Source: Streblomastix strix (taxonomy: Eukaryota). From it: a stretch of 32,735 bases of DNA. The stretch spans positions 1 to 32,735 of the forward strand of contig SNRW01000066.1 of assembly GCA_008636045.1 (NCBI GenBank), read 5' to 3'. Below the pieces are notes generated by a model. The model saw only the letters and a list, made by a program, of their open reading frames with translations, did no database searches and was not told the origin of the DNA. This document shows positions 3,055 to 29,804 of the stretch, piece after piece (the stretch's first letter is position 1; each line of letters begins with the position of its first letter). A program made the position numbers and the translations under genes.

Positions 3055-3136
3055 GATTTAAATTATTTTTTACTAATAAATTCGTCCGACATTAAACAAA
3101 TTTATTTTTTAACTTTGTTTTCTCCTATACTTTCAG

Positions 3137-7260: not shown

Positions 7261-7344
7261 ATAAGTAGTATATAAGTGAGAAGTTCGCCTCTTCATGTTT
7301 TGAAAGTCGTTTTGTATTTATAGCCCTCCAATAAATATAATAGT

Positions 7345-7420
7345 TTGGCTTTCATGGCTTAACGCTCATACGTTTCGCTGCTTGCGCAGCTCAACGATTC
7401 GCATTTCGCCATTCAGTCAA
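7345..7420 (-). other. Subterminal 76-nt hairpin with periodic GA/GA internal loops
   Basis: Plus strand TTGGCT-ttc-ATGGC-tt-AACGC-tc-ATACGTT-tc-GCTGC-[TTGC]-GCAGC-tc-AACGAT-tc-GCATT-tc-GCCAT-tc-AGTCAA. Confidence 0.75.
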
Positions 7421-7495
7421 TCCATTTACTTAATTAAAAAATTAAAAAATAAAATAAAAAAGTTTGTTTTCAAAGTTTGTTTTAAAACGTTAATG

Positions 7496-8086
7496 TCAAA
7501 TATATAATTCATATTCCCTCATTTGTGGCTAAGGTGGCAATTGTTAAATTTCGGGTTCTTCTTCTCTAACTTCTTCCTTCTAAATTATTTATTTTGGCTA
7601 TTTGTAGCCCTTTATTTTTTGCTTATATTTCTCTATTTGTTTAACAGCATCTTAATGTTATTATTTTATAAATGTATTTTCCGTTCTCAATCGTCTAAGT
7701 TCTTCCAAATCGAGCTACGGATTAGTATAATTTATCTATGGCTATTTTGAACTTTTAACTTTTCGCTTTCTGACTACTTTTTTTAATGGCTTTTCTCTTA
7801 CTTCGCTTTAACTTTATGAGCCTTCAGTTTCATTTTCATACTCCGCAATCTCATCTTCTTCTTCATCAATAGGTTTTTATATCTTCTTTTTCCCTATCCC
7901 CCCAGCGCTTCGTGCCTACAAAAGCACCTTATTTTATTATATCTAAGCTAATGCCCGCGCTGTTTTTTTCCCTTCTTCATAAACCTTTATTTTATTTTTT
8001 CCAACCTGCATAATATATCCATTATCGAAATATTCTATTTATATGCCATTCTCAATCAAATTTTTTAATGCATGTGCCTAATCCAT
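7496..8086 (-). CDS. Hypothetical viral protein (196 aa), charged/coiled-coil
   Basis: Open ATG 8086 to TGA 7496-7498 with TAR=Gln (MDQAHALKNLIENG...MREYELYI*). Confidence 0.65.
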
Positions 8087-8109
8087 TTTAATATTTTAAA
8101 AATAGTAAA

Positions 8110-8811
8110 ATGATTAAAGGAATCAAAAGAAATTAATTGCGCATGTCAAAGACAAAGAAATAAATGTCCCAGTTAAAATAAAAGGAACTACAGGACCAAG
8201 ATAAAATAAAACTGTAAATATTCGATGAAGCAATTAGCCGCATAAAAATAATGCCAGCAGAGGAAGCAACAACTGAAAGGTCTTTTATGTAGCCCCAAGA
8301 ACAGGAACAATCAGCAAGAAACCGTAAGAAATATAACATAAATAAATATAAAGAAGTGGAACGTACCACTGCACAAGTTGAGCCAGAAGAGGCTATATAA
8401 AAGCTTGCAGAAGAATAACCAAGAAATATATATTTATCTCATCCAAATTTAGAAGTTCAAAAGTTCGTCATTGACACAATTTGGCGAACAAATACCAAAC
8501 GCTAGCGTGGCGATGACGTTGTTTTCTCCTCGGATAACTTCATTAAATTCTGGGCACTAATCATCTAGAACGATGAGGAGGATGTTGAAATAGCATTAGA
8601 GGAAGCCATTATTTAACCGCATACATGCATACCAAAAAAGCTAAAGAAAAAGGACTTAATTAGAGTATAGGATATTTTAATCAAAAATGTATCCGTTAAA
8701 GTAATTGATAATGTATTGTATAATTCAATTGAAAAATTATTTCGGGTTAATTGTGATTTTATTCGTCTCAGTGATACACCAGAGACTGAAATAAATGAAA
8801 ATGATTTTTGA
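8110..8811 (+). CDS. Hypothetical viral protein (233 aa)
   Basis: Open ATG 8110 to TGA 8809-8811 with TAR=Gln (MIKGIKRNQLRM...TEINENDF*); divergent from 7496-8086 across only 23 bp. Confidence 0.7.
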
Positions 8812-8842
8812 AACATTAATAGAAACATTTAATTTTATATAA

Positions 8843-9880
8843 ATGGACACAGAAATTTTAAGAGATTTATAAAATCTCGATGAAGATGATTTAGCTAACG
8901 AACAATAATAGTTCCAACTATTGAAATAATAATAGAACGAGTAAATGAAATAAATTAAGTAAAAAATTCAATTAATGACAATCATTGATACTCAAACATT
9001 AAAGTGATTTTCTTATCAGTTTCAATTTTTTAAAAAGGATGTTGGTTTCGTTAATCTAAAAACCAATCAAACCATTCGCGGAATCAAAACATTTTTATCA
9101 CCTATTTATGTGGATAAAATAATCAAGCAAGGCGGCACAAATAGTTAAATTCTACTGGCTAATTGAGATACAACAGATATGGGGGATTTTTGCCTAAATA
9201 TTATCCTCATGCAATGGGGTAATTAATTATGGAGCCTAATGATGATATACGCAATTAAGGTATAAGGATAATGAAAAATAAGGCGAATTGGGATAGTTTC
9301 ATACTCACTGGCTGCAACGCCGATCCCTCAGATAGAGATGGTGAATGGAAAGTTGGATCTACTTCATCATAATTTAGGATATAAAAATAAGTAGATGATG
9401 CTTATGATTATAAGGGTATAATTATTGATTTCGATTGCACAACATTAAAATTTAACTATTAAATTGTTTCATCTTTACTTATCGAATATGCTACTTAATA
9501 AACACTTGGCATTGGTGTATTTGATTTCTGTACTTGGGGCTAAGCAACCTTATTAAATAACCGTGTGTATATTTTAATAGGTATAACTCACTCAAACCCT
9601 AATACTAATTGGAATATTGGATACACTCTATTTTCTGTTATACATGATTCTGCAATGTCAAACTTCAGTGGTTCATCTCGTAATTTACCCCTTAGTACTG
9701 TTATGTTAGTGACCAAGTAATCTAGTAATCCAGTGCTATAAACTAATGCTGTTGTTATTGATTGTTTTATTGACCCAGATGGGCAAATTAAAATTATTAC
9801 ATAATGCTAATTTAGTTTGCCTAATGATTTTTTTTGTATAAGTATGCGATTCATATGCTATTTATAATTAGACGAGTTGA
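8843..9880 (+). pseudogene. Second fibre-like gene, degraded
   Basis: Fragments QTIRGIKTF, IIKQGGTNSQILLAN*DT, QGIRIMKN and KGIIIDFDCTTLKFN parallel motifs in the 12368-14143 protein. Several frameshifts and an in-frame TGA at ~9164; the end coordinate is approximate. Confidence 0.6.
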
Positions 9881-9898
9881 TATTTTAATAATATATAA

Positions 9899-10024
9899 AT
9901 GAACCCCTATAATGAAACCATTATTTATATCCTTGATTAATTAAATATAAATTGACATGATATATTTTAAGCAATTTGGGAGGCAGCAATAAAATATGCC
10001 TGCGAAAGTAAGATATGCCGATGA
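9899..10024 (+). pseudogene. Very small viral ORF with one in-frame TGA
   Basis: TATATAAATG start context; MNPYNETIIYILDQLNIN*HDIFQAIWEAAIKYACESKICR*. Confidence 0.35.
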
Positions 10025-10038
10025 AAAATAATTATTTT

Positions 10039-12023
10039 TCAACCATTACGAATCATTGAGCCCCCCATCTCTCCAATCACCTCCATGATAAGCACTTATG
10101 TGTCTGGGTTATCATCAAACATTATCCTGACTATAGCATCACAAAGATAATGGGTAATTGGTGTCAGTCCAACCTATACAGGGTCAGGATACGCTCTTGT
10201 GCCACTAAATTCTGCAAAAACCTTTTATTTTTATGTATTATTTATATCCATTGTTTCATTAATTTCTAGCACTAAATTACCATTTAAAATAACCTATATA
10301 TTCGTTCTAGCACTAATTTTTGAAGAATTATAGCCTCGCATAAATGAATCATCAGTGGCTAATTTCCAAGCGAGCATAAATTTATTAGTGTATAATGTTT
10401 TAGTTTCTTTTGTTCCATTAAATAAAGTAGTTCGATAAAATATATTTGCTTGCTTCATATTGGCTGCTTCTGCGCTGTTATATCCATAAAAGTATTTTTA
10501 ATCGTCTGTATTTATATTCTCGAAGGTAAGAGAATAATACAAATCAGAGGGGGCACTAACTACATCCTAATTAACGAAACAATCAAACATTTAGCCATTA
10601 TCGGCTTAAGTTAATGCTTCATATGGTTATGGTATCACATGGCGCTAATCGATGACCAAATCGAAGGTGTGGAATAAGACAGTGAAAAACCACGTAGGAT
10701 ATTTAGGCATGGCGAAAGTCATAAACATAGCCTTAATGTTCGAGAATGACATAATACTTTATAGGCTGCCGCTTATGGTACCAAAATTATTAAATAGAAA
10801 ATTGGAAAATTATGACTTTATTACTTGTGTTGGGAAATTAATGATTTTTTGGCTTTGGATAAATTAAATAATCGCGTCCTCATTTTCTATATTGAAACAT
10901 ACATTTTATATTTTTAATTTTGTAAATACTGCATCTTTAATTTAGCTTATGGTGTTCTATGGTGCTTTACCATCAACAGCTACACCTTACATATTAACAA
11001 TTCGGGCACTAAATTTACCATAATTATATACATAGGTATCCGATTATGTGCCAGTGGTGACTACAACATGAGCAATGTCATTTTATAAATAAATTATATC
11101 TAGTTTCTCTGGTGGAATCATTTAATAAGCCAAATGACTATTTGCTACAGTATCAGTTTTATTTAGCCATACAACCTTCAAATCTTATAAGAAATCTTGC
11201 ATCCAGAGCTATAAATATAATGATGCGAAATTTCTTGTCAAAACAGGAAATGAATTAAATATCGGGTTCAATTAATTTAAATCAAAAACACCACTAAAAA
11301 CAATATCATCAGGTATTGGATAATACCATGCATTTGTTGCTGATCGTGTATTTATGTCGCTTAATGGCACGTCTATAAATACCCCACAATGGCGTTTTCC
11401 TGCTATGATACTTCTAGTGGTGAAACGCTGACGGAGTTATTAGTGCATAAATCACTTAATGAATTTGTACAAATTACGGCTTGCTCTCTTGCATAAATTG
11501 ATGTATCCCATAATTTCGTGCTATCTTTACATATGGTAAATTAATTAAATGGGCCGCAAGCAGTGGAAAATCCTAACCAAAAACGCAAAACTTCAATTAG
11601 TGCATATCTTTATGCCCCCTATGTCATATCGTCAGTTTGTTCAGTTGTTATACTCGCTTTTCCATTAAAATTTACAGCTGCATTAGCTGCTGCGTCGCTA
11701 TTAACGACCGTCGCAGGTACTTTATTTAATTATATTGCCAGTGTATTTTTAGGTATTTTTATAGCCCAATTTACTTAGCAAGTTTAAACCATTGAGCAAG
11801 TAGTCGATCCTCTTGCTGCTAGTGGAGCACGGGTATATTTAACACCGGCAGATTTTAATTGAGTAAATGGCTGGTCAAAAAATTCTTATTTTGATATGGT
11901 GAAAGATTATGGGTGAATGCTCATGGTTTTCAATACCTTCCCCATAGCCATATAGTCACTAATCTAGTCCGAGTGTTGCATTTTAGCCAATCTACTTAAA
12001 TAATCGCTTGAGTTGAATGACAT
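10039..12023 (-). pseudogene. Probable major capsid protein (double jelly-roll expected), one 1-nt frameshift
   Basis: ~660-codon reading frame MSFNSSDYLSRL...FWLGFSTACGPF...SIYAREQAVI...KFMLAWKLATDDSFMRGYNSS...EMGGSMIRNG*. One A is apparently missing at ~11412 (PLE/SIIAGKRHCG). The capsid assignment rests on size, beta-rich composition and context; there is no diagnostic motif. Confidence 0.65.
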
Positions 12024-12104
12024 TTTAAATAAATAAAAATAAATAATATAAACGATTAAATTAATGATTAAAACAAATGAATCTATTATTTTATTATAAA
12101 GTAA

Positions 12105-12311
12105 ATGGGATTTTTCAGTAAGATAGCAAATTTCGGTTCGAAAATTTTAGGTGAGGTTAAGCATGCGGCTCAGTGGATAGCTCCAACTCTTCATAAAGTT
12201 CTTACAACTGTTGCTGGACCAGCAGGAATGATCAATCCAGGCATTGGCGCCGCACTTGGTGCAGGTTCTAATCTTGCAGGGGCAGTGGATAGATTGGTAA
12301 ATAAACGCTGA
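12105..12311 (+). CDS. 68-aa peptide, MG N-terminus, amphipathic helix; candidate membrane-lytic virion protein
   Basis: Intact ORF ending in TGA, divergent from the capsid gene: MGFFSKIANFGSKILGEVKHAAQW..., with a Gly/Ala-rich C-terminal half. Confidence 0.75.
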   Translation: MGFFSKIANFGSKILGEVKHAAQWIAPTLHKVLTTVAGPAGMINPGIGAALGAGSNLAGAVDRLVNKR

Positions 12312-12367
12312 TAGATCCATCAATGGCCACATTAATGTTTCCGTTAATTATTTTTATTTTTATATAA

Positions 12368-14143
12368 ATGCAAAGAAATAATAATCCACTTTCATAGTAA
12401 TAAATTAGAACGATAAGGTAATTAATCACAAATGATATAGCTTATTATATCCAGTATCAAAATCGTGATAGTGGTTCACGTAGTGGCCAATTGCAAAATG
12501 AAGATTATTAACTGTTTATAGATAACGATAACGCTTTAGTTTATGCTGCCAATAATTAAATCATTGATTGCCAAGCTTCAGATTTTGCATTAAAAATAGC
12601 CGCTGATGGTTTATTGACAGTAAAAAATTTAAAGGTTCTAAATTTTGATTTCGTTGCATAAATTAATCAATTAATTAATGAAGTAAATTAATTATAATCT
12701 GCCGTTGGTTCTATTGACTCTGATATTATTGGGGTAAAAAATGATATAATAACCATATAATAAGAGCTTGCAAGACAGCAGCATTTTCGGGGATATTATT
12801 TACTGAACACGGATATTTAAAATTTATCAAATTCCGCTGATGGAGAATTTGCATTAAGTGCCGAGAGTGGGACAGTATGGATGTATGACTCTAATTGGTA
12901 TAATAGCGGCGATATTGTCCCAGACTAGGTAACGCCTGCCAGTGATGCGGTGCCATTAGTGGATAGTGGCGCAGGTGTTGCTGGTATTTGCACAGAATAC
13001 GCCAGAGGGGACCATTAGCACCCCCTTTAAATTTCCGATGCTTTACCCCATGCTGATACTACCACGGGAGAGGCAGACACCGCAAATACTTATGCTAAAT
13101 CTGACCATACCCATCATGTAAATCTAAGTAATGACGTGCCACTAAAAGATTCAGGAACGGGAACATCTGGCACATCTAATATTTATGCCAGTGCTCAGCA
13201 TTAACACCCCCTTAATGTTGATCCAACTGTTGCAAATGTGCCACTGGTAAATACTACCGCAGCAGCTAATGGGATGAGTGATTTTTATAGTAGAAATGAC
13301 CATGTCCATCCTCAATAATTAACATATACGGGACTATTAGCTTCTGCCATGTTTATTAAAAATGGTGCCTAGGCAACTGATGTATTACTCGCAAATGGTG
13401 ATTCAAAACCTAAATCAGATATTGCGGGTGATGGGTTTGTGGCTAAAACAGGTAAAACGTTGCAAGCAGTATAAGATGTTTTACGTCATAGTGGCGATGA
13501 TGAAGAGTCGGAGGATGATGAGGATTATATAACTAGGGGAACAATATATAATTAATATGTTTCTAAAACATCGCCAGATACAATAATAGGTAGAAAAATA
13601 TTTAAAAATGATTACTTTTGGATATAACCAGCATCATCAACAAACCCATTAATTTTATTCAAAAATAGTAACAATCTTATAGAGTAATTAATAAATAGTA
13701 ATGAATTGATATTGACTATAAATACTGTTGATCCAGTTGGCATTCCATTATATATTAATTATCGGGGGAGTAGTTTAAGTACATAATATCCAAATTCATA
13801 ATTAGTTTAAAATTATATTTTAAAGGCAAGTTCATCAACATCATTTGCAGGCGTTACTTGTGGGACTACTTAAATAGATCCTATGGCAGATAATTTTAAT
13901 GATGGTTTAAGAATATCAAGAACAATAGAAAGTACAGGCAGTGCTTCGATTCAGTTAGGATGTAGTAGATCATCAAATATAGGATAAATTGCAGGATAAT
14001 AAATTATTTATACAGCAACAAGTTAATAAGGTGTTAATGCTTTAAGTTTTAAAATATCATTAGCATCTGATGCTGGTAATGCTAATAGAGGATTAGTTAT
14101 TTCAGATGATGGAAACACATCAACATTTAACGGAAGAGTATGA
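12368..14143 (+). CDS. Tail-fibre-like protein with four HxH repeats (591 aa)
   Basis: Open from ATG 12368 to TGA 14141-14143 with TAR=Gln. N-terminal coiled coil, then repeats YARGDHQHP, YAKSDHTHH, YASAQHQHP, YSRNDHVHP, then FIKNGAQATDVLLANGD and a C-terminal RGLVISDDGNTSTFNGRV. Confidence 0.75.
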
Positions 14144-14175
14144 TGATTCCGTTGATTATTTTTATTTTATATAAA

Positions 14176-14643
14176 ATGGATAAGCCAATAAAATAATTGT
14201 TTAATGAACTTGTTAAATTTCATTTTGAAAATGAGGATACAATAAGGGTAGCCATTGATACCCTAAATAATTTACTTATCAAAGATAATAAAGAGCCATT
14301 GCATCCACTTTTGAAAGAATTACAGAGGATAAATGAATAATTTCTAAATTTATAAAATAAATTATAAAGCATAAAATAATATGTCGATGAAGAAGAATAT
14401 AAAAATAAACTATTTAATGAACAGGAGAAATATTTTAAAAATAAATATAATTAAATTAAAAAGCAATTGGATTAAAATAACCAACCCCTATAAATCAAAA
14501 AATAAATAATTTCCGAAGCTAACGAAACAGAGAAATAAATATACACTGATTTTATAAATGACGCATAAAATAGTAGCTTGGTCAATTATTATCAGCTAAA
14601 CTTAACTTCATCAGGTAATTTAAGTAATGTAAATAGTTAATGA
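14176..14643 (+). CDS. Hypothetical coiled-coil protein (155 aa; may originally have extended to ~14860 or beyond)
   Basis: ATG 14176 in TATATAAAATG context; first TGA at 14641-14643. Protein-like sequence continues in frame past this and a second TGA at ~14692. Confidence 0.55.
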
Positions 14644-14881
14644 GTTCATCGGTTTTATCACTTACGGGTTCAATAAATGTATGATGATTTTTGAATTGCT
14701 GATAGGTTTATTTTTCATCCTCGGTTAAAATAGTTGGTTCAATTAATACCTCGAATATTTTAAATATCTCCTAATCTGTCGCGTTATATTATAGGCCAAT
14801 GTTTGTGGCTAATTAAAACAATTGATGCAATCCGTCAGAATTTGCCGAAGGCATTTAAGTAAAAATAAAAATAAATATTTT

Positions 14882-15244
14882 TCATATCCCAACGCATGAC
14901 TCATCGACGTATTCGTTTATGGCTTCGTTTATGGCTACGTTAATGGCCCCAATTATGACCTTCTTCTTATGATTCGATTATATGATTTGTTTTATGCTTA
15001 TTTTCTATTCATTATTATTCGTATCATTAAAGAATATATATTTTTCGTTAAATTTCCCGTACGATTTTAACTTTGTATAATCAGTAAAATCGCTATTTTT
15101 GGCCTTAATTGATTGATAAAATTATATGTTCCATAAAATGTGTTCATAAAATTATATGCCATTGATTTACTCTATTAGTTGCCCGTCCTACTTTACCTAG
15201 TTTTAGTTTAAATAAAATTCGAGTTTTTCAAATTGACTTTCCAT
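14882..15244 (-). CDS. Hypothetical viral protein (120 aa)
   Basis: Open ATG 15244 to TGA 14882-14884 with TAR=Gln (MESQFEKLEFYL...DESCVGI*). Confidence 0.6.
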
Positions 15245-15278
15245 TTTATATCAGATAAAAAACTAAAAAATAAAAAAA

Positions 15279-15446
15279 TCAAACTTATTATTTATCGTTG
15301 GGTAAATTCAACATTTTCAAATATAAAATGTATCGCCAGTTTTATGCTAATTCAAAATCTTTATTAGCTATTGCTTCGTTTAGAAATGCCTCAATTTATT
15401 ACTCCGTTAATTTATTTCAATGAATTATATTTTGATTCTTTCCCAT
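15279..15446 (-). pseudogene. Small viral ORF with one in-frame TGA
   Basis: MGKNQNIIH*NKLTEQQIEAFLNEAIANKDFELAQNWRYILYLKMLNLPNDKQQV*. Confidence 0.35.
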
Positions 15447-15666
15447 TTTCCTTCTATAAAAAAAACTATATTATATAAATTGTTATGTTTAGCGGCACCA
15501 ATACTATATCTAAATATCCCCACAATTATTTATCTAAATTAACTGTGTCCGTTAATCTATTAGGTATTGACACGGATAAAATAGATATAATAAAATTGAT
15601 ACCATAAAACATATAATTCATCACCCCCTTAATCAAATTCAAAATGATCATTTTATCCTCATAAAA

Positions 15667-16740
15667 ATGACATTTTAGGAATTACAAAATATTTAATTCA
15701 CGAACTAGGATTTACTGAATGAATATAGGACTAGGCCATTGACGAAAAATTCAGTGTTCCTCATCAACGGTAACCACTATATTGTTGGGGCTGTTGACTC
15801 TGGTAAAACAACATTAATGTCCAAGCTAATTATTATGTATAAGAATGCAATAGTGTAAATGCCAGTAATGGAAAACAATAAGTAAATAGCGACTCGCTCC
15901 GCTCGTCTTGACCCATATATATTATATTTCTCTAATTTTGGAGCGAATGAAACAATGGCATTAAATTTAAATAGTAAAGGAATATAAATAGTGAATATAA
16001 CATATGGCGAGGCAATGGTTTTTTTGTCAGAATTTGATGAGGTAAAATATTCAGCAAAAGAGGTGTATATTTATTATAAGTTTGGGGAATAAAATTATGA
16101 TTACAATAGCAATTTTATTAAACGAATGAAAGAGAAAATAATGGAAAATAACCCAATTAAACATGATGAAAAGCCATTAGTGTATGTCGAAAGAATTGCC
16201 GAACTATTTTAATCTACAATAATGGAGACCATAAATAAATACTCATAACCTAGCCAAATATTGCGGTTCAAAATTCCAGCACTAATTTAAAATGTATCTT
16301 TTCAAAAAAAATTAAAAGTAATAGATGATAAATAAACAGCAGACATAAAAATATTAAAAATACCTATTCTAAATGATGCACAATTATTGAATACATTAAT
16401 GCTCTTCGATGATGTTGGACCCAAAGCTGATATACAACGTTTTAGTAGTTCATTAGCCAAGACCATTACCCACTTGGTTAGTTATTCACGTCATAGTAAA
16501 AATACCATATTTTTTATAGCTTAACGTCCCCAATATTTGTTTAAGAAAGCGAGGATATTGTTGCACGTCATTTGTCTCGGGGTTCATTTAGGCGAGAGTA
16601 ATTTAAAATAAATTTATGAGGAGAATAGCATTTAAGGGCTTGATTACGATGAATTTTTATTATTATATGGCACGCTAAATAAATATGAGTTTATGGTTTT
16701 AAATAAGTGGCTCGGAAAATTCGAGCTATTGAGGAATTGA
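15667..16740 (+). CDS. A32/FtsK-HerA-like genome packaging ATPase (~357 aa)
   Basis: Walker A YIVGAVDSGKTT, Walker B LMLFDD, then the SRH arginine motif and FFIAQ, in the order typical of A32-like ATPases. ATG at 15667 and TGA at 16738-16740 are in the same frame. Confidence 0.85.
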
Positions 16741-16825
16741 GTCCTTGCAATATAGCAACCACTGATAAAATGATTTTGAAAACAACTTTATTTTTTTATT
16801 TTTTTATTTTTTTAACGACATTAAA

Positions 16826-17736
16826 ATGGAAGCACCAACAACGGCCACACAACAAATAATTTCAAACAATGAAACTTTCACTTTTGAAACCTATATGATG
16901 TTCGAGATAATGATACGAGATAAAGATGGATATGTTAATGCAACTAAATTATTAGCATAAATTAATGAACGTGAAAATACTGATAAATAGCTAAGAAAAA
17001 TATTTGAGTCTCCAGTATATAGAGATTATAAATAATTTCTGCAATATTTGTGTAGTGCCTAAATTAGGCACCACCCCCAGAAGAACTAGATTATTTGCTT
17101 CCATCAATATTTAATAATAATGTTAGAGGTAAATATATCCATAAAGATTTAATTAATATCATTTGTATGAAAACATCAATTAAATATTTACACCATGTAA
17201 ATAAAATAATGGATGCAATTAATGAACGTATAATAGCTACGCATGATGAAACAACAAGTATTTAAGAGCACGCAGCAGATACCATAAATATGGTCATTGA
17301 AGAATAAAATATAGCTATCGAAGAATATTAAAATGAAATAAAATAATTGAAACATCAAGCAGTGCCTAAAGATAAAGAAACAACATATTTATTAGCTATT
17401 GAATTAGAAGAAGAATGGCAGGATAAAATCACTTATTAAGTTAGACAATTAAATAAAAGACATTTATGCAAAAAAGAAATTAACCTATTTAAATATTCGG
17501 CGTTATTCTTTGATAACCTACCAATAGCAATGACCATAAATGAGAGGTTAAAAGAAGAGCTATAAAAAGAATTCATAGATATTGATTTCTTTAGTAATAA
17601 AATAACAGTGCCAGATGCAGATGACCAAAGACTATTGGATAGCATCAGCCGTATCATTGATGGGCTATACCCATTAATGTATCCGCATAAAAATAGCCCA
17701 TTAATGCTCAATCAATAACGTAATCACTAGCCTTGA
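16826..17736 (+). pseudogene. KilA-N domain DNA-binding protein, one frameshift
   Basis: IMIRDKDGYVNATKL...VRGKYIHKDLI is the KilA-N/APSES pattern, followed by a coiled coil. The frame changes near the C-run at ~17075; TGA at 17734-17736 overlaps the polB 3' end. Confidence 0.8.
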
Positions 17737-20700
17737 GCCCATAAACGTAAGGGCAACAGCTTTAATCTTTTAGCACTATAACCTTAGAGTGTATCCCAGT
17801 AATGTCATTCTTTTGTATTTCTATTTTTGAGATAATATAGTTCTTTTGCCTTAGTCTCATATTAGTCGCTTTTGTTATCGTTCCTTCATTAATGTTATCC
17901 ACTTTATTTTATTTACTATTTTTAGTCGTTTTCTAATTGACACCTTTTAGTTTTATCTTTTCTTTCTCGCCAACTTTAACATATTAATTTTTAGTGGCTT
18001 ATGCTATTATTTCTGTTCCTTCATTTTCGATTGCTAAACCTAGAACCTTTTTTTTCATCGTGTAAATCATTTTCTATAGTCGGGAAGTAATATTTAGCAT
18101 TATCATCATAAAATTATTTATCTTTAATCACATAATCAAATTATTATTTATAGATTTCCGTTTATTATCTTCCATTAATAGTATTACCAATATCCGTATT
18201 CCCACTAACCGCCCAATAAGCCGAATCAGTATATCCCTCCACAAAATGGAGTTTATCCATATCCAAACATTTGTACATAAAATTATATATAAAATTAAGA
18301 TACCAATATTTAGCATTATCCAGCACAAAATATGCCTCCTATATGGGTGTTTTACAAGTGCAAGTCTCAGGGTTCATTTATACCGCGTATGCATTATAAC
18401 CCAATTATTGTTCATCCATAAACATATTTGACAAATGGGCCTTTAGTGCTTCCTTCTAATCCAAGACTTTAATTTCGGTATATTTCTCTGTGTTCATTCC
18501 ATCAGATCCATATGATGAGTTCATAGTAATTTTACAAAATTGTTCTAATCCTTTATTTCCATCTAATTTCGTTTAAATTCGCTTGCCTATAAATTCCTTG
18601 ACGAACAGATTAAATCCTTCATGCTTATTGAATAAAATTAATTGCTTTACATCATCTATATTAAAGTGGCAGTCATCAATTAAGAACCATAAATAGTATG
18701 AGTTAAAAGACATAACTTTTTTATTGTTGATAATAAATTTGTTAGTTTTCACAATTTTATTCTGTTTTAATGCCATTATTTTTCATATGGTTATACATAT
18801 AGGAGCCAATGGTATCCTCATTAGTGGTAAATTTATAATTTCTTAAAATATGGGGGAAATTTATGAAATCATTAATGCATTTTTCGTCAATGTGTTCCTT
18901 TATCTCAGCAATAAATAAGTAATCACGACCATTAATGATATCCATTATTTTATCCTTATCATCAGTGCCGTCAATAACAGAGCCAGCCATATACATTTTG
19001 CCACCCGCACTTCGTGGGCTTCGCGTATATTTAATAAATTTATGTTCCGCTGATAACATAACGCTGGGATATAGAGAATTGAAATCAACACCTACGACAT
19101 GAGAAATTACATTGTTTGACGTTTGAACATGAACCTTCTTTTCCTCATATACGAATTATTTTATTACCTCTTTACCAGCTATAATTTCCCTATGCATGAC
19201 GTTAGACAAGCCGCCAATTATGCCACTACGAATGAGTTTATAATCTTCAAAATTTGTTAAATTAGTCGGGAGACATTTAAGCATGCAAAATCTTTTAAGC
19301 TATATAAATAATTTACTAATATTTTTATCTTTATTTGAACAATATTTATTGCAATATAAACAACATGGTTTTAAGTTTTCTTTTGTATGAGGTAAATCAT
19401 TATTGATACGGTCAAGTATTGGACGGTTATTGAATGTAAATTTATCCCCACAAATGGCACATGCTGATGTCTCTAATAACTGCTTAAAATAATCGAAATC
19501 AATGACGGAAAGGGGCTCCGAAGGAGATCCAACGCTTTAGTGTTTACCAGCCGCAGGCAGAGGCCGTGCCGACCTAATGGTTTGCGGATTGCTCTGCAAT
19601 CCTTTTCCACGATGTTTAATTTAGTCCTAAAATCTATAGCAATCCACTTTATATTTCCAATAAGAGGGATATGAAACGAATTTATTTGAATTATCTGGAA
19701 AGGGGGGATAATTAGCATTTATGTCAAAGTCCTTATAGGCTAATACGTATTTGATAGTGTTTGCACATGCAACCATGGACATAAATCTAAACATATCAAT
19801 TTTATACTCTATATTCATTTTTATTAAATTGTCTATTGGTGCTATCAATATTTTTGTATCCTGTTCGTTGTAATACTATAAATAATCCCACCTATTTTTA
19901 AATTATTTTGCGTCGTCTAAATAATTTATATATTCGGCTTCGCTCATTGATGAATTCTTTAGTGTTGAATTGAATGCCTCTTGGGGGAATGGATCGGATA
20001 AATTTAATAGTTCGGTATAGTTATCGGTATTAATGTATTCATATGGAAATACGCCTTTTTCATTGCCTTCAATAGAATCTCCAAAATTTTTAGCAAAATC
20101 CTTCAATGTCATCGGCTGAACATAAACCATTATATGGATGATTCCGCCCAAAACCAACCATTAATCTTTTTTCATATAAATATCTTTTAAATAATTTTGG
20201 AAATAATTTTCGTAAATAAAAAAATCTTAATTATTCATATTTAAAAAAAAAGTATAAAAAATATAATTCTGACAATTTTACTGCAAGAATGTGACTTAGG
20301 TTTATTATTAATACTAATATTAATTTATAAAATGGATTAAATTTAAAAATTGCAACTTTTTTTATTTTTTAGCGGCAGTTAGAGCAAATATCGGCAATTT
20401 TTGACATTTTTCATTTTTGCATTACATATTGAGTCATACTTTTTATTTTTGGTAATTTTGAGTAATAAATATTATTTTATAAATGATAATATGAATAATT
20501 TTATTTTATGCTTTAAGCAATGCTCGCAATTCGCAAAAAAAAATAAAAAAACGCATTTTTACAATGTACAACTATTAAATTATGTTATTTTATTATTAAA
20601 TAACTGTAAAAAATAATGTATAAAAATAATTAACATAAAAACAACAAAATCAATCGAAACAATTGTAAAAAATGAAAAAAATAAAAAAATCAATTTTCTG

Positions 20701-23171
20701 CCCCCTGAGCCGCGGAAACTGTAATATTATATAATAAATATATTTTAAAAAATAAATAAATAAGTTTGGATACATATTGGTGATAAATACAACCAGATTC
20801 ATAAAAATAAATCGGAATTATTTTTTTCGCACTTTTTTCGAAATGTGCACAAATATGTTTTTTACATTTATCAAAATTAATTCTAAAATTATTTTAAATA
20901 TTTTTATATTAAAAAAACATTAATGTTGCTTGAGAGCGGAACCACCCATATCACAGAATTTTAATTTAATTTATGAGTGCCTATGTTTAACAATAATTGA
21001 TTTCGCTTATGATGAACTGCCAATATAGCTTTTAATTTCCCAGTCTAACGATTATAGATTTTTTAAATATTAATGCAAAATCGAACTTTGTGCTATTGAA
21101 TCCAACGAAGGGAACTTCATTTGTAGTTAAAACATTAATTATTTTATCGTCATATTAATTGTCTTATTAAATTTATTCCGCTTCTTTGAATATTTATTTG
21201 TGCGATTAATTTTTAAAATTATCTCCATTTCGAAAGTCACAATATGTTGTTTTATACCTTATCTATTCTTAATTGTCGAGGCTACAGAAAGAAGAACTAA
21301 TTATGAAATCTATTTGCTTGATTTGCCAAAATCGTTATTAACTACTTTCTCCACTGTTTCAAAATCAAAAGTGATATAGTACTATGTTGGTTTAAATTCA
21401 TTTTCTCGATTATTTGCTAGTAAATATTAATAGATTTTGTTTTATATTATTTATGGGCAAAAAGGTCTTTGCACTGCTTCCGATTTAATTTCTTTGACTA
21501 TTTTACCTTCAATTATCTCGCATTTATTAATGTTTTTCTCATATTGTGCAACGAAATGAATGTCTTTAGAGTCAAATGCTTTTTATTTACAGAAGGGGCA
21601 AAATTTCAATCCTGTTAAAGATTCTGTATTCGAGATATAAAAAGCATGTTGAATCGTTGGTGTTTATTCATCGCTGGCTATATCAAATAATACATTAAAT
21701 TCAGGTACTTCAACGGGTTCATTTATTGTTTCATCGCTGGATTCATCTGCGGCTTCATTAACGTCTTCATTATATATATATATACCTTTGATTAATAATA
21801 ATATGTTTAATTTTCCACTTAATAACTATAAATATTTACATTAATTTTCTCCCCTAAAACGAATTTATCAATTTCTGTTTCATTATCAAATCCAGTGAAT
21901 TCATTTAGCCATTTTTGGAAATCATTTTCAGCAATACCATAAAATTTAGCCATATGTTCTTTTGCAATATGCTCTCGTGAATGTTCTTTAATTCTTTTCT
22001 CTGGAGTATCGGGATATTTAAATATATTATAAGCGTAGAACCAGCATATATTGTATTTGCTTCTTGCCGTTCTCAAACAGTTTCTATGACCCTTCACATG
22101 AAAATCAATTAGTTCCTTAATGCTGCCGCCTATGTGATACTGAGATAGTTTGAACGTTTTTATCATCATTGAATAAATCGCTATGAATCGTAATTTTGTG
22201 CTATCTAAATTATAGTTCTACATTTCAATTATTTCAGATTTTACAAATTGTTTATATTCCTCGAGATATTATTTATTGATGATTGATTTAGGGGTGTGCT
22301 TTTATGTCCTTGATTCATTGGGCGTAATGTTTCCGTATGATACTGCCAGATGACCATTTTTGTCACTATTTTACTCCTCATAAATTACTCCAAAATCAAA
22401 GGTAATTTTAAAAGGTTTATGGTTTTATTTTTCATAGACTTCATCAATAAAATTATTTATCTCGCCTAAAGAATAAATGAGATTGTTATAATATGTATAG
22501 CTCATTTCACCTTCATTATCTTTTTCAAAATGATACCCTTGGCGTGCCTAACTAACTGCTTCAATAAATTTATCCCCGATTTATGGAGGCAAATAAAGCA
22601 AGGTATTATACCAGTCATTTTCAATTTCATTAACTTCACCATTATTGTATTAGTTAATTTTATCCTTAATTTCATCGTTCTATAATATATCAATGTATAT
22701 TTATGGAAGAACAAAATTGCGTCTGGTTTCGCTAAAGTTCAAGGGCTTAGTGAATTAAATTGTTTCGTTGAGCAAACGCTATTGGATCTATTAATCATAT
22801 TCCTATTATGCTTATTCCTATTATTGTTCGTGTCAATATTCAAGCAAATCCTATTCATATTAATTTTAATGGAAATAATTGATTTTGTTATTTTACTCCA
22901 TTAGTTGTTGCTATTATTGTTGATGCTATTGATGCTATTGTTGTTGAAGTTGGTAATTCTGTGCTTCTTGCTGGGCCCTTCGAACCTGCACTGCATTTGC
23001 AATATATATTAATTGGGTTAAATTATTTCTTCGCCTTTTGGGGTATTCTAATTAATCCAATATTTGATTTAGTTATTATTTTAGTGCTGGTACTCTTAAA
23101 CGACGATTAACATTATTTTATCCAACACATTCAAGCAATAATAAAATTTCCTTCTTCTTTAGATATGGCAT
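17708..23171 (-). pseudogene. polB: Protein-primed family B DNA polymerase (~1500 aa), disrupted by frameshifts and a MITE
   Basis: With TAR=Gln: ExoI YITFDFET (~21360), ExoII VGFNSTKFD (~21090), GVDFNSLYPS (~19075), CKITMNSSYG (~18520), EGDTDS (~18235), KLKGV near the C-terminus. ATG at 23171, TGA at 17708-17710. Frameshifts near 22860, 21240, 18750 and 18050; insertion at 20136-20947. Confidence 0.93.
20136..20947. mobile_element. Non-autonomous DNA transposon (MITE, 812 bp) inserted in polB
   Basis: Imperfect TIRs of ~140 bp (left GGATGATTCCGCCCAAAACCAACCATTAAT..., right reverse-complement GGGTGGTTCCGCTCTCAAGCAACATTAAT...). ATAT flanks both ends (20132-20135, 20948-20951). Removing the element plus one ATAT restores the frame LKFCD-IMVYVQPMTL. 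Confidence 0.9.
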
Positions 23172-23243
23172 ATTTATTATAAATTAAAAAAATAAAAAAA
23201 TAAATTTAGTTTGGATAAATTAATTATGTTATATATGGAAATA

Positions 23244-23352
<109 letters not shown>

Positions 23353-23353
23353 A

Positions 23354-23668
23354 TCAATGTTCAAATATAAATTCGTAGTTAATGGCATCAAATTCGGTTT
23401 TCAATTCTGGATATGATTAATATAAAACATTGATGATTTCTTTATCTTAATATAGCCGTTATTTGTATATTTTTATCCATTTTTATGCTTCATCAATAAC
23501 ATCATTAATTAGTTTCCGTTATTGAACCAATTTATGACATCCAAAAGGCATATACTATTGAGTATATTTATCTGGGTTAATTATTTAATCTTAATAAGCT
23601 TTAATCTTCCGAATACAGAAAGCGTAATCTATTGCTGTTTATTAGTAGTAATCGATTTTTTTGTCCAT
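23354..23668 (-). CDS. Hypothetical viral protein (104 aa)
   Basis: Open ATG 23668 to TGA 23354-23356 with TAR=Gln ([10 protein letters not shown]...YEFIFEH*). Confidence 0.65.
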
Positions 23669-23685
23669 TTATAATAAATAAAAAA

Positions 23686-25145
23686 TCATTAATATTAAGT
23701 TTCTAGTAGTAAATTATTGTACATATCACAATATTACGTCGGCACCTTACGCCCAAAGTTATCATATAATGTAAATACCACTGATTTATTTTAGCCAATA
23801 AAACACTCTTACGAAATCATGTTTTATCCCCATAAAACTGGGGCATCAACCAAGTTTTATTTGAAGCACACATTATTGAACCCATTACCCCCGACAGTCT
23901 CCATCGTTATACCCTTTAATTAATTATTTATGCATATAATTAACATCTGGGGATATTCTATAAAATTACCTATAAATGGACAGAATATTGGCAGGTCTGA
24001 TATCAAACTATTAGCAGAAAATTTAATCTTATAAACCAATGTTTCTAAATCAATCTATTTAATTGATGATGTGAAATTAACTAATTAATTTGCTTTATTT
24101 TCATTTAGCCCATCATATAAATCTAAGGCACCAACGAGTTAGGCATATAAATTTGGTGACAATATTAATTTTTTAGCATACCAATTAATATGTTCAACTG
24201 CTGCATATTCACAAACAACTTCAGCGATGAATTAACCTTAAAAACCAGTCCTTCCTACAGCTGCATAAATATCCATCCATTCGCTAGTGGTTAAAGCTGG
24301 TAGTGAGCATATTATTCTCATGGGGAAAGTATTTATATTATTGATTATTTATTGCATGGTCTATTATTATACATCAATTGGCTGGTCATCTAATGTTGTT
24401 ATCACGCCCACTGAACTAATATTTATACGCTTACCAAATAAATAATGTACAGATAATGCATTTGACGCTAAGGGCTCAACAGAAGTTATAAAGTTATTTG
24501 TAGTTGGGCAATATAATCGGATTAATCCTATTGCTCGATATGCTACACCATTACTATAATCCATTATCCAATAATGATAAAGGAACGCGTCAATTCTTAA
24601 ATTAATATAATTCACTGCTGAACTTACTATATCTGAACCACAATTTGTATTAAATGAAAATTGATTATTTGATAATTTTATGTATGTTCATTCTGGGGGT
24701 TATTGAAGCAAATAGTGCCTCGGTTTGTTGTTGTTTACTATTTGAAATATTTTTCTTATCCGTCAATCAAATTAGTAAATTAAGGAACTTAAAGAGCAAG
24801 CAATTATGGAACATATTTATATCCCTGATTATCTTAGTCATCAACGTATTAATTATTAATGGCTGTATTTAAATTTAGCCTGATAGGTGGCAACTCCGTT
24901 AATGCTTATAATGTAAAAGTATTATTTACGTTATCTAGTTAATAGTATATTTTTCAGTTGGGGGTAGAAATTATATTATGTTAAATTTCTATATAATCAC
25001 TATTTAAATAATAGGTTAAATTTATTGGGATATTATTAATGCTATTCACTTAAAATGAATTATAGCCTGAGGGTATGGTGGTCTTCCATGAAACGAAAGC
25101 TTCTTATGAGTCAGAGCTAATAATTTTTAAGCCAATGTTTGACAT
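23686..25145 (-). pseudogene. Frameshifted ~480-codon viral gene; candidate minor capsid/structural protein
   Basis: ATG 25145 in TATATAAATG context (MSNIGLKIISSDSQEAFVSWKTTIPSGYNSFQVNSI...). Long beta-rich open segments with several frame changes; the function is guessed from context only. Confidence 0.45.
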
Positions 25146-25169
25146 TTATATAAAATTAAATTATTGAAA

Positions 25170-25412
25170 TCATTATTGTTTTCCATTAATGCTTTTTCCA
25201 TTCAATAATTCAATTAATTTCATAACTGCATTTTAGCTATTTTCTTAGGCTATTAATATGATTTCTTTTAGCTCTTCCATCTTCAGACGCTTATTAAATT
25301 ATCTCAATAAAAATCGAAGTTCAATTTCGGGGTCTGATTTCGTGGCTAAAGAAACTAAAGAACTAAGAAACGAATTATAGACCATGAATTCTTCGCATGA
25401 TATTTTAATCAT
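25170..25412 (-). CDS. Hypothetical viral protein (80 aa)
   Basis: Open ATG 25412 (TATATAAATG context) to TGA 25170-25172 (MIKISCEEFMVYNSFL...). Confidence 0.6.
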
Positions 25413-25442
25413 TTATATAATGGTAAAAATATATTTTCATTT

Positions 25443-26486
25443 ATGTTTAAGAGCTAAAATTTGAGTTGTGAGAAGAATAAGACTAGATATAGAAAGTATA
25501 ATATCAATGGCTTCCATTTGTACCTAATTAAAATATAATATTATTATTAGAATATTTTAAAATCAAATAAAATTTCATAATTGAATCATAAAATAGGCTT
25601 GAAGTCATAAAGACAATATAATACACGAGTTAAAACAAAAGCTGCATAAGAAAAAGCAAAACATAAAAGATCAGCCAGCTCAATCCATATAGTTAGCCCA
25701 TAGGATTATATCCCCGCTGATTAAATCGGTAATGTAGAAGAATCAGATGATGACTTTATTTATAGGTAACAACGATAATATCAAAAATAAGCATTAATGG
25801 CAGCAAGACGCAACGCCATTAATACCATGCAAAATAGCTTGATAAATTAAGTTCAAGAATAAAACCATCTCTTTGGATTGCTTTACAGAATAAAGGACCC
25901 AGCTTTTACTGATATATATAACCATAATGCTGTGATAAACGAACCCGCTAATGATACAGTTAGCAGAACTATACCATGGCACATGATATAGTTATAAAAT
26001 TTAATATAATGTGGTTGCTAATCAAGTGGTGTATCATAATTAAGGAACGAAACTGATTTGTAATAAGGAACATCAACGTAAGACGCATTTAGCTAATAAA
26101 CGGATTAGGATATGGGGCAATCAGAGGGATAAAATATTGGTTAATAATTGCGGGAAGAATATTAATAGGCTAAATTATGGAGTGATTAATTAATATAGGA
26201 TAATAAAGAAACAAATAAATTAGAATATTAAGCAGGGGCCTCTGATTGGGGATAACCACCCATAAACAGCTCATATACTAATAATCCATATCCCCGAAGA
26301 AATACGGGATATTATATGAATGTGGGAGGTATGCCATCATTAATGTTGAAAAATGAAGTTTATGATAAATAGAGTAAAATAAATATACCAAAGGAGCGAA
26401 AAAATTATATAAAAACAAGCTAATTAATATAATCAGCCACCGCATAAGGAAGGCTATAGAAACACGGTAAAAATAAGAAAAAATGA
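25443..26486 (+). CDS. Hypothetical Gln-rich protein with basic N- and C-termini (up to 347 aa)
   Basis: No in-frame TGA between ATG 25443 and TGA 26484-26486; the true start is uncertain. Confidence 0.55.
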
Positions 26487-26488
26487 AA

Positions 26489-26977
26489 TCAAAAAGTTTA
26501 TACTGCTACATCTACCTGCTCTATATTCACTTCGATTATGTCAATGATTCTAATTAAATCCTCTTTTGATAAAACAACTTTATTTAGCATTTTTTAGGCT
26601 GATAATTATAGCTCAGAAATGTCAGATTTAAATACCCTTTATTTTTCTCTCAATCCTTATTTAAATTGTTTTCGTTGTAATCTAGCTATATCTCTAGCCT
26701 CCTCTTCAGTGTAATATTTCCGTGGCCTGCCTTGCCTTGGTGTTGCAGGCCTTGGAGATGGTGCCTCTGCTGACGGCTCAGTTGTTGGCTCTGCTAATGA
26801 TTCAGCTGACGGCTCCATAGGAGGCACCACTGATGGCTCCATTACTGGCTCTATTACTTGCTCCATTGATGGTTCCTCAATTGATATCGTTTATGTTTTC
26901 ACTTTTTTTACATATTTTTTATGTAGTTTTTTCTCAAGAATTGGCTTTTCGATTTGTTCATTTATTTTTCCTTCCAT
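26489..26977 (-). CDS. AT-hook-containing protein with EP-rich repeats (162 aa)
   Basis: Open ATG 26977 to TGA 26489-26491; EPxx repeats, then PRQGRPRKY (AT-hook GRP core) and a helical basic segment. Confidence 0.7.
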
Positions 26978-27015
26978 TTATTAATTGACAAAAAATAAAA
27001 AATTAAAAAAATTAA

Positions 27016-28180
27016 TCAATTTAATTTAAATGTTCGTTTATATTTCTATTGTAAAGTATCAATGGAGTCAGCCACTTTCTTTAAGTAAAAGGCAGGAACT
27101 TCAACAGTTTTAATATCTTTGTATGGTCTTATTAACTCACAAATAACGTTTCCATGGCTATAATTAATGAATGTTGCAATTTCATTAAATTATCGTCGTT
27201 TCTTTTCGAAATTATGCTGTGTTTTTGATAGGTCAAGATGTATCATTATTACATTACCTTAGTGAAGGTCTAATAATTTATCCCTTGTTTATAGTTCCTT
27301 AATGCTGGATGCATCTTTCATTTTCTAACGAATATATATCTTCTAAATCTTCTGATTCATTAACTTACTGAGGGGTAAATTTATTCTTGAACGCTGAATG
27401 CTTGGTGTTATTGTAGTCATCAACGACTTGCTACATTTGCTTATTATTAGCTATGAGCTGGTCATCGTCTTCAAATGCATTGCTTATTGTGCGGACTACA
27501 GAATCAACGATACGGTTTTTATTGATAAATTTGGAAGAGTTAAAATATTAGGTGATATTTTATTCTTTCGAATAATCCTTTATTTGATTGCTACCGAGGG
27601 CGGCCTCACCATCAGATCGAATATTGGAAACATGCTGGTCTTTTACTAATTATTTTAGGCATTTGAGTAATTCATTAGTTGATTTATCTTTGATAGGATA
27701 AACTATTAAATATTTTGTATTAATATTTATGGCGAAAAGATAATGCTAATTGATTTTATTTATGGTGGGATGCATAATGAAAATAACATCAATTTCCCAA
27801 CTACCTAATAAAGGCGAATAATATAGTCGTTGATATTTCATTAATGGGTTTAATTTAATATCTTGGACAATATTAGTTTTATCTTTCGCTTTACTTCTGA
27901 AGGGATTTTATATTTTCGGTGGCTCAATTTATTCCTTTATTTATTTTGGCTTGGTATTTTATTTAATTCTTTCAGCGTGATATTTTAAATAATTATGTAA
28001 ATAAATTTTATACCATTGCGATATTGATTTATTTTAAAATATCAATTCTAAATTATTTATTGTAAATTATTAATTAAAATAATTATTGATATTTCTAATG
28101 AAATCCTTTAAATTTATTTTATCATGCTTAAAACTTAAATTGTCAATTACTTGCTCAATTGGTTTATTTCTATTGGACAT
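27016..28180 (-). pseudogene. Retroviral-like (RVE) integrase, one C-terminal frameshift
   Basis: GSWEID...YLFAININTKYL...IRSDGE...NRIVDSVVRTI...YNNTKHS follows the RVE core layout. ATG at 28180, TGA at 27016-27018; an apparent 2-nt loss in the (AT) run at ~27332 lies downstream of the catalytic core. Confidence 0.85.
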
Positions 28181-28211
28181 TTTATATATTTTAAATTGTA
28201 TATTATTAAAT

Positions 28212-28390
28212 GCGCGCAAATGGCTCAGTGGGACTGGTCCCCCTATTACCAAGTCGAGTGTTTAGGTTCGACTTCCCCCGCTCACCGTCCTTTCGTTCGT
28301 AAAATTAACAGTTCATTTTAATTTTTTTACGAGCGGGGGGACCAACTGTTCTTGCTCCAACTCAAAAGAACAGTGACCGAGTCCGCCCAT
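28212..28390 (+). ncRNA. Candidate Pol III-type structured RNA or terminal structured element
   Basis: TGGCTCAGTGG (28221-28231, A-box consensus), GGTTCGACTTCC (28265-28276, B-box-like), T-runs at 28316-28319 and 28322-28328, and several inverted repeats. Confidence 0.35.
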
Positions 28391-28506
28391 CATAAAAAAA
28401 AGAAGATGGGTGTTGTGTAAGCCAATGCTTGCTCGAGGTTTTTTTTTAGTTTTTTATAATTGGGATAAAAATACGGGTAGGCATGGTATTTATATGTATA
28501 AATACT

Positions 28507-29804
28507 AATTACATAAAAATAAAGCAAAAGAAGAAGAAAATAAAAGAAAAGAATCGGAAACCGAGAAAAGGAAAATATGTGATGAAAATTATGAGATGAA
28601 AAGAGAGAATGAAAGAATGAAATATGAAGTTGCATAATTGAAGCATAAATATGGAAATGAAAACATTAAATCAGAAATTAAGATTATTGAAAATAAAGAA
28701 AAAGAAAAAGATTGCAAGATTCAATAATTGGAAGAATAGAAAAGAATTTAATAAACTGAAATAAATAAATTGAAATAAGAGAATTAAAAAGAGAAATAAG
28801 AAAAGGAAAAAGAAAGAAATGAAAAAAAAAGAAAAGATTCATTAATAAATAAATTGAAAGATGAAAATACGAAAATAAAAGAAGAAAATGAAAAATTGAA
28901 AACAAAACCACCTCAAGGTTTAATTTTTATTTATTAATTAATATAAAATTTATTTTATTTCCATCTTTAAATTAGTCAATTCATCTGTCAATTCATATTT
29001 CCCCATTGCAATCCATAATCCAGATCCATCAGATATTGATTTCTCTGATATTGATGGAAGGATGAAAAAGATAACAAAGAAACAAAGTAAATTGAATACA
29101 ATCTCATTGATTCAAATATAAGAGAATTGAATCTGGGAAATTGAAACTGAATTCTCTGGAGATCTTTAATTAACATGTTTATTTCTATTATATTTTTTTT
29201 TACTAAATTTATTAATTTTATTTTTTTTCCAGGTATTGGAGTTATGAAAGATCCATTCAACTTCACAGCTGGATAACATTCTACATATTATCCTGGTATA
29301 TTATTTCTTTATTATTTTCCCAATCACTATTTTATTTTCATATATTTAACTATTTTATTCTATTCTAAGATCAATGTGTTTCATATTCCTCAAAGTATAT
29401 TTATCTTTTTTTTATTTATTATTATTATTTTATTCAATTATTATTTTATAATACAGATAATGGGAAGATGGATCTATATGGTATAAGTTAAATTGGATAG
29501 ATGGAAATGAAGGATATTCAGCAGGTCAGAAAGTGAAACAATAATTTGATTCAGAAAAAGGAACATTGATATTCTTTGTTGATGGAGTACAATAATCTGT
29601 TTATTTCTCAGGAATTAAAGAGAAAGTTCGTTTCTTTGTATGATTCATTTATATTTAATATTCACATATTTATTTATTATATAATTTAATATCATTCAGA
29701 TTTGCATGCACTATGTTGGTTCTTCATGCACCATTCGATCTCTTAAGAAACTCAGTTCACCAACTTCTGGACATGTTCCAAATGAAAAAGCAATATTATG
29801 GTGA
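28507..29804 (+). pseudogene. 5'-truncated paralogue of the host coiled-coil/SPRY-like gene
   Basis: Near-identical to 4160-5352 including introns. Starts mid-coil at the virus right junction; in-frame GGA>TGA at ~29128; terminal TGA at 29802-29804. Confidence 0.75.

Follow-up and report, generated by a model that had tools for sequence, protein, structure and literature searches.

What occupies positions 7264 to approximately 28510 of a 32,735-nucleotide stretch of DNA (contig SNRW01000066.1; the whole stretch is hereafter termed the window) from Streblomastix strix, an oxymonad protist of the termite gut, and has it already been counted among the viruses reported from this host? It is argued here that this region, the element, is probably a decayed, integrated virus of the Maverick/Polinton type that reads TAA and TAG (TAR) as glutamine (Gln), and that it has a capsid which is predicted to fold as a double jelly roll and likely comes from a second capsid family of S. 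strix. In the broad sense of Maverick/Polinton membership, the element has the layout of a protein-primed PolB (pPolB), an RVE integrase, an A32-like ATPase, and a double jelly-roll capsid, the last of these as predicted for an intact S. strix relative (P0019).

Genetic code and extent of the element

Under the standard code, only two open reading frames (ORFs) of at least 100 amino acids are found between 7264 and 28509 (3% coverage), whereas 19 genes called with translation table 6 cover 86% of that interval, which agrees with the claim of an earlier note on this DNA, made from the sequence alone, that the genes are largely hidden from standard ORF calling. Table 6 by itself yields 75 ORFs of at least 100 amino acids in the element, most of them spurious in such AT-rich DNA (29% guanine plus cytosine, GC), and it is therefore homology and not the ORF count that serves as evidence. 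The host code that the note had proposed for the element was borne out by a test in which all Gln codons were masked and the commonest residue was taken from standard-code homologues. That residue was Gln at 16 of 77 TAR positions and at 4 of 31 CAR positions; among 1842 non-Gln codons it was Gln at 35, and the contrast with TAR is significant (Fisher p 2e-11). TAR makes up 243 of the 325 Gln codons in the element and 17 of the 22 in two host exons. Additionally, the capsid, ATPase, and PolB genes stop at TGA at the point where their homologues end, and TAA or TAG ends 10 of 15 genes in a related 13.4-kb locus in the standard code (L002).

The left end is sharp: similarity to a host repeat ends at 7263 and the element begins at 7264 with AGTAGT (7264..7269, plus strand), which we take to be an AG-type Maverick terminus. 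A read contig identical to 7126-7336 crosses this junction and several further identical contigs lie in the interior, all from one sample that is possibly the source of the window. It should be noted that the read-contig comparison left out 20701-28510 and that depths given below are summed contig depths in this one sample, not copy numbers. The right boundary is approximate (28500..28510), where a host coiled-coil gene takes up again without a terminal inverted repeat or a target-site duplication. No terminal inverted repeat was found between the element ends (best score 26 versus a shuffle maximum of 34). This copy has neither terminal inverted repeats nor the 6-bp target duplication, and its right end has apparently been lost; further, the flanks do not rejoin as one host repeat unit. 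GC content is 29.5% within the element versus 23.6 and 23.9% outside it. Of the bounds first proposed, 7264..28506, the left one stands and is spanned by a read contig, and the right one is to be taken as approximate.

Capsid gene and predicted fold

The major capsid protein gene (10039..12023, minus strand) is interrupted by one frameshift near 11412. P0019 aligns to it in two frames, with residues 1-208 at 56% identity and residues 208-652 at 59%, and read contigs of related copies differ by one base at the break. After 16 distant relatives had been added to the alignment, the model of P0019 reached a pLDDT (score predicted for the local distance difference test) of 81.6 and a pTM (predicted template modeling score) of 0.86. 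Foldseek matched this model to iridovirus, PBCV-1, and mavirus capsids at E values of 2e-11 to 6e-11 (mavirus, 5e-11), and viral capsids were likewise matched in BFVD. Comparison with the PBCV-1 capsid gave a Z of 15.2 (root-mean-square deviation 4.0, 341 aligned residues), with that of faustovirus a Z of 15.0 (~340 residues), and with that of mavirus a Z of 12.6; the fold matches are spread across giant-virus and virophage capsids. The capsid is thus predicted to have a double jelly-roll fold. Because the P0019 model matches capsids of this fold, the element is not demoted to a capsid-less one, a step that the earlier note had tied to the lack of a jelly roll at 10039-12023 or in any other gene, together with a grouping of PolB with linear plasmids. 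Searches of PDB sequences with profiles yielded no match for the capsid, one chance match only for PolB, and foamy-virus-type entries only, at E >0.5, for the integrase.

The capsid family is large and was long active in S. strix. It comprises no fewer than 120 distinct proteins from this host (120 listed of 283 homologues, all named S. strix), 23 of these 120 align over at least 620 residues of P0019 at 52-100% identity, and the 90% UniRef cluster of P0019 has 29 members. In a FastTree phylogeny, the capsids from S. strix are united in a single clade (support 0.83) that lies next to standard-code relatives.

Replication, packaging, and integration genes

The pPolB gene (17708..23171, minus strand) comprises a terminal protein (TP)-like region, a vOTU-like Cys/His pair, an exonuclease, an HNH/EndoVII insert, and a palm, and matches PF03175 at an E value of 2e-8. 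A metagenome homologue (P0277) maps onto it in five pieces, revealing at least three frameshifts. Exonuclease and palm motifs are present, the exonuclease set being full; motif C, a catalytic motif, is altered and reads GYTDS (as assembled), with a Tyr, seen in the window only, at a position that holds Asp in 66 of 69 rows. The Cys and His are each invariant in 23 of 23 rows and stand at the vOTU position; TP and vOTU were assigned by position, not by fold. In the available part of PMC11161782, a vOTU protease at the matching place in pPolB is described as likely to free the terminal protein. The HNH/EndoVII insert, near 19461, matches phrog_1035 (E 4.9e-9) and is also present in P0277.

The packaging ATPase of the A32/FtsK-HerA type is an open frame (15667..16740, plus strand) with a Walker A motif at 15787, a Walker B motif at 16396, and an Arg finger at 16483. 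The profile of its family alignment finds B204, the packaging ATPase of STIV (E 4.5e-4), and Pox_A32 matches four of eight aligned family members but not the ATPase of the window. The RVE integrase (27016..28180, minus strand) has a D-D-D triad (motifs at 27799, 27619, and 27514) and one frameshift near 27340; it matches PF00665 (rve) at an E value of 8e-5, below the cut-off, and the integrase of another Maverick-type locus (L012) maps onto it in two frames (E 1.5e-30). The third catalytic residue is Asp rather than Glu in the window (27514), in L012, and in L013.

Thus, the pPolB, RVE integrase, and A32-like ATPase named in the earlier note are all present. The fibre-like genes that it also named gained no database support when 29 proteins were scanned against Pfam and 22 against PHROGs. 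Its statement that a separate adenain-type protease is not recognized agrees with these scans, which returned no such match, and with the lack of a fitting QxCG motif in the called genes, about nine ORFs being without family. The capsid, PolB, integrase, candidate penton, and KilA-N genes are all broken, and this copy, although it retains almost the full gene content, is a fossil and most probably not active by itself. The term near-complete accordingly holds for gene content and not for a copy whose main genes are broken and whose ends lack an inverted repeat pair.

A probable second capsid family in S. strix

Endogenous viruses of S. strix in the host table-6 code were published in 2023 (PMC10120064), so the code match is not in itself new. 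In the available part of that study, the S. strix capsids are placed in a Metamonada group seeded by Trichomonas vaginalis (MMPC_40, DUF4106-type), and its Table S4 assigns the 820 capsids of S. strix to a single cluster. The earlier note's claim of a divergent metamonad-associated Maverick/Polinton-type lineage in the host code stands for gene set and capsid fold, the existence of code-matched S. strix viruses having been reported before; what is likely new here is the capsid family.

As proxies for MMPC_40, in place of that study's own sequences, 21 capsids encoded on Maverick contigs of GTDB genomes were used; a search for the published S. strix capsids gave 37 proteins, of which none came from S. 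strix. Between 20 capsids of the window family and these 21 proxies, no BLASTP match reached 30 bits, and none was found at the thresholds given for MMPC_40 (E 1e-12 and at least 23% identity over 100 amino acids). HHalign related the two families at 95.7% with 16% identity, which indicates kinship at the profile level. Pfam DUF4106 matched 0 of 46 and 0 of 10 family members and also 0 of 17 proxies, and hence decides nothing. Of 12 locus tags of the window family, none was found in the available supplement rows of PMC10120064, and none of seven S. strix tags known as MMPC_40 capsids occurs among the 120 listed window-family proteins. In the literature covered, which does not extend to subscription papers or bioRxiv supplements, we found no account of a second capsid family in S. 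strix, and the main text of 10.1101/2025.04.19.649669, in the part available, has no mention of S. strix. A capsid that is only profile-related to the proxies, a family of at least 120 proteins, and the existence of standard-code relatives together suggest that S. strix hosts a second virus lineage, and we consider it probable that this capsid family, with its standard-code relatives, has so far gone uncounted.

Relatives and possible module exchange

Full-length standard-code capsids that are 23-30% identical to P0019 occur on metagenome contigs of up to 20-22 kb. Locus L002 has in common with the window the capsid (26% identity), the ATPase (27%, E 1e-28), a small amphipathic protein (35%), and the penton candidate; no PolB or integrase lies within its 13.4 kb. 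Three tandem related genes of ~200-220 amino acids stand between ATPase and penton candidate in L002 (5380-7293), with no window counterpart found. The window ATPase scores 292 against L002 versus 46 against L012, which is of the proxy type, and is 14-17% identical to those of proxy-type loci, while the integrase matches L012 well. In a FastTree phylogeny of a 234-residue palm piece of PolB (69 rows; short or unmatched sequences, 16 of 84, were left out), the window falls in with P0274-P0276 (0.82) and is separate from those S. strix PolBs that join L012 (0.84). Judged from these sequences, the pattern fits related replication genes combined with two different virion modules, and mosaicism of replication and virion modules is described for these viruses in the accessible part of 10.64898/2026.10.13.758929. 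As a separate observation, the pPolBs of S. strix are divided among three clades, a hint that a third virus lineage (P0339, P0352) may exist.

Scans of IMG/VR with capsid or PolB queries gave no relative, a first metagenome scan gave 0 of 594 stretches, and a GTDB scan with P0144 gave 0 of 45. A relative's contig carrying both a window-type capsid and a window-type PolB was not obtained in the metagenome, GTDB, or IMG/VR scans. Five GTDB genomes titled as bacteria (G001-G005; loci L003-L024 and L025-L048) carry Maverick-type virus contigs, and G001 alone has 17 loci for PolB and 34 matches for the capsid; these contigs are likely misbinned DNA of protist viruses.

Alternative explanations

The element could instead be a divergent member of the published Metamonada group (MMPC_40), or of a group in the 2025-2026 surveys, and so have been counted already. 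The host, the code, and the gene set are as in the available part of PMC10120064, the capsids are kin at the profile level, PolB and integrase show a clear relationship to their counterparts in proxy-type elements, and the supplements of the 2025-2026 preprints may hold the window capsid family. We nevertheless regard this as unlikely, since capsid likeness to the 21 proxies is absent at the BLASTP level and far below the E 1e-12 threshold of PMC10120064, the S. strix capsids in the available part of that study lie in one cluster only and have no locus tags in common with the window family, and the window ATPase is distinct. Several points weigh against the interpretation favored here. The tie between proxies and MMPC_40 was drawn by eye only, from ~31 of 73 positions in common with the printed KAA6394011.1, and the compared part of supplement file 2 of PMC10120064 is without S. 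strix rows, which makes the absence of tags weak. UniRef names some members of the family "Major capsid protein" or "Capsid protein." The fold was modelled on P0019 (56-59% identical) and not on the broken gene of the window, and an earlier model of the capsid, built on 46 rows from S. strix alone, had a pLDDT of 46 and matched nothing. Further, the phylogenies are FastTree trees that rely on a short piece of PolB and on a very distant outgroup, and the penton, fibre, and entry-peptide roles discussed below are candidates.

It is also conceivable that a standard-code virus integrated once and that its dead copy drifted passively to TAA and TAG, without replication under the host code. A change from CAA to TAA is silent in S. 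strix and favored by AT drift, and the TAR share of the element (243/325) resembles that of the two host exons (17/22). The TGA stops of capsid, ATPase, and PolB where homologues end, set against the TAA or TAG ends of most L002 genes, and the many long, open S. strix capsids that have diverged to 52-91% identity from P0019 favor replication under the host code, however, and render passive drift very unlikely. Least probable, and already largely refuted, is that the element is a capsid-less self-synthesising transposon or that a misassembled or contaminating viral contig was analyzed: the missing terminal inverted repeat and target-site duplication and the failure of the flanks to rejoin would suit such an origin, and against them stand the double jelly-roll model of P0019, the identical read contigs over the left junction and in the interior (from a single sample, from which the window itself may derive), and a code that matches that of the host.

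Other genes and host flanks

Among the remaining genes, a KilA-N gene in two frames (16826..17736, plus strand; the break is inferred) matches PF04383 (E 1.5e-5, 25.2 bits versus a cut-off of 23.8). Its KilA-N part (16826-17167) lies in an oxymonad element, whereas in the available part of 10.1101/2024.03.23.586382 KilA-N is said to appear restricted to polintons of Parabasalia. The minor capsid (penton) candidate (23686..25145, minus strand) is disrupted, with TGA stops in frame as well as a frameshift; its N- and C-terminal pieces match L002:7338-9440 (z 9.6 and 11.0), and from this sequence likeness it is likely a penton. Atlas features of the L002 homologue (0.91-0.92; PF21507 V18-19 on 10% of one cluster) are a lead only, and the L002 candidate as a query matched in none of five genomes.

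A gene that stands head to head with that of the major capsid protein encodes a 68-residue protein with an N-terminal amphipathic helix (12105..12311, plus strand), whose hydrophobic moment of 0.48 is attained by 0.1% of shuffles and which is 35% identical to L002:3848-4057; similar small genes adjoin the capsid genes in L002, L007, L012, and L041. By analogy, presumably with adenovirus protein VI, it is likely a membrane-penetration peptide. An open frame of ~590 codons with repeated DHxH motifs (12365..14143, plus strand) has no informative family match and is not among the significant pairs with the L002 fibre-like gene; from the look of its sequence, it is likely a fibre. A possible fibre or tail piece, by the same kind of impression, is g4 (9214..9915, plus strand; ~230 residues, no family match).

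The remaining ORFs gave no Pfam or PHROG family where scanned. These are g1, charged, of 196 residues (7496..8086, minus strand; no family above cut-off), which weakly matches L002:11724-12320 (z 5.4, possibly compositional); g2, of 222 residues (8143..8811, plus strand); g7, helical, of 155-167 residues (14140..14643, plus strand), with a weak match to L002:4089-4442 (z 5.6); g8 (14582-14854) and g9 (14882-15244), both in 14582..15244 on the minus strand; g16, of 104 residues (23354..23668, minus strand); g19, of 80 residues (25170..25412, minus strand); and g20 (25443..26486, plus strand), which is Gln-rich with a basic tail and an uncertain start and is possibly a core protein. Two others are described from their translations: g3, a Gln-rich ORF of 68 residues (8801..9007, plus strand); and g21, of 162 residues (26489..26977, minus strand), with a GRPRK motif at 26731 that we take to be AT-hook-like.

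Within PolB lies a miniature inverted-repeat transposable element (MITE; 20135..20948) of 814 bp with arms of ~140 bp that are 76% alike and a flanking TA duplication, presumably Tc1/mariner-like given its TA site; its inverted-repeat score is 113 versus a shuffle maximum of 37, and its GC content is 20%. Read contigs related to the MITE have a depth of 136 versus 30-42 for identical single-locus contigs, which hints at more copies. A (TA)n microsatellite of 100 bp (23246..23345) lies inside the element, upstream of PolB. Upstream of the integrase, 28221-28280 is GC-rich with A-box- and B-box-like words; a tRNA at ~28221-28280 was considered and rejected, as neither a tRNA nor an Rfam family was found there. 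The host flanks (682-7263 and 28510-32359) form a tandem repeat with a unit of ~4.95 kb and copies 85-89% alike. This unit carries an intron-bearing coiled-coil gene, which we take to be SPRY-like and for which the exons scanned gave no Pfam match. Measured along this unit, the right flank picks up ~1.7 kb beyond the point where the left flank ends.

Proposed life cycle and implications

By analogy with known families, working copies of this virus would have a linear genome replicated by pPolB, with the vOTU-like domain likely freeing the TP. The A32 ATPase would pump the genome into a capsid of the major protein, penton, and fibre, cell entry would be aided by the amphipathic peptide, and the RVE integrase would insert the genome into host DNA. 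The family probably multiplied for long in a host that reads TAR as Gln and diverged widely.

A broader interpretation, put forward tentatively and as possible rather than expected, is that this capsid family marks an undescribed lineage of double jelly-roll viruses in anaerobic protists, whose standard-code genomes of 20-22 kb, either free or integrated, occur in metagenomes. One branch would have taken on the TAR = Gln code in an oxymonad and multiplied there to hundreds of copies, and the lineage would have its own virion module and replication genes in common with Trichomonas-type Mavericks. If so, the virus lineages of S. strix number two or more, and its viral DNA lies far above the published estimate. 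The viral share of its genome is given as 0.108 in the relevant row of PMC10120064 (available part, columns as interpreted here), and the present data suggest that this is an undercount. The second capsid, ATPase, and penton module with its standard-code relatives would supply new anchor sequences for unplaced metamonad Mavericks; in the part available, a June 2026 preprint (10.64898/2026.06.19.733378) has metamonad elements still ungrouped and calls for more genomes of related hosts. The recoded and standard-code relatives would also form a matched pair for studying the move of a virus into a host with reassigned stop codons.

Comparison with known systems

Like the Mavericks/Polintons of animals (Polintoviricetes group 1), the element has pPolB, an RVE integrase, an ATPase, a major and a likely minor capsid protein, and a length of ~21 kb; unlike them, it has no recognized adenain-type protease, it has KilA-N, and its capsid is not alignable by Pfam. 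With mavirus-type virophages it has in common pPolB plus RVE, integration in a protist genome, and a mavirus capsid among the Foldseek matches. It differs from them in that no cysteine protease gene was found and in that the fold favors PBCV-1 and faustovirus (Z 15) over mavirus (Z 12.6); mavirus pPolB, as far as the available part of PMC11161782 describes it, is also unlike the PolB of the window, whose exonuclease motifs are full.

Closer at hand are the Metamonada Mavericks of MMPC_40, which, in the part of the source available, are alike in host, table-6 code, and double jelly-roll capsid, although their printed S. strix entries have capsids of 553-562 residues versus ~650 in the window family. 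Proxy-type loci likewise have pPolB, RVE, an A32 ATPase, and, next to the capsid gene, a small gene for an amphipathic product, but their capsids are related at the profile level only, their ATPases are 14-17% identical, and their PolBs form a separate clade. Finally, the pPolB2 of nematodes and oomycetes resembles that of the window in having an HNH nuclease inserted in pPolB, a likeness that does not imply identity of the insertion site. This insert is called exclusive to oomycete and nematode pPolB2 in the available part of 10.1101/2023.08.22.554363, and the element and its metagenome relatives extend it beyond that range.

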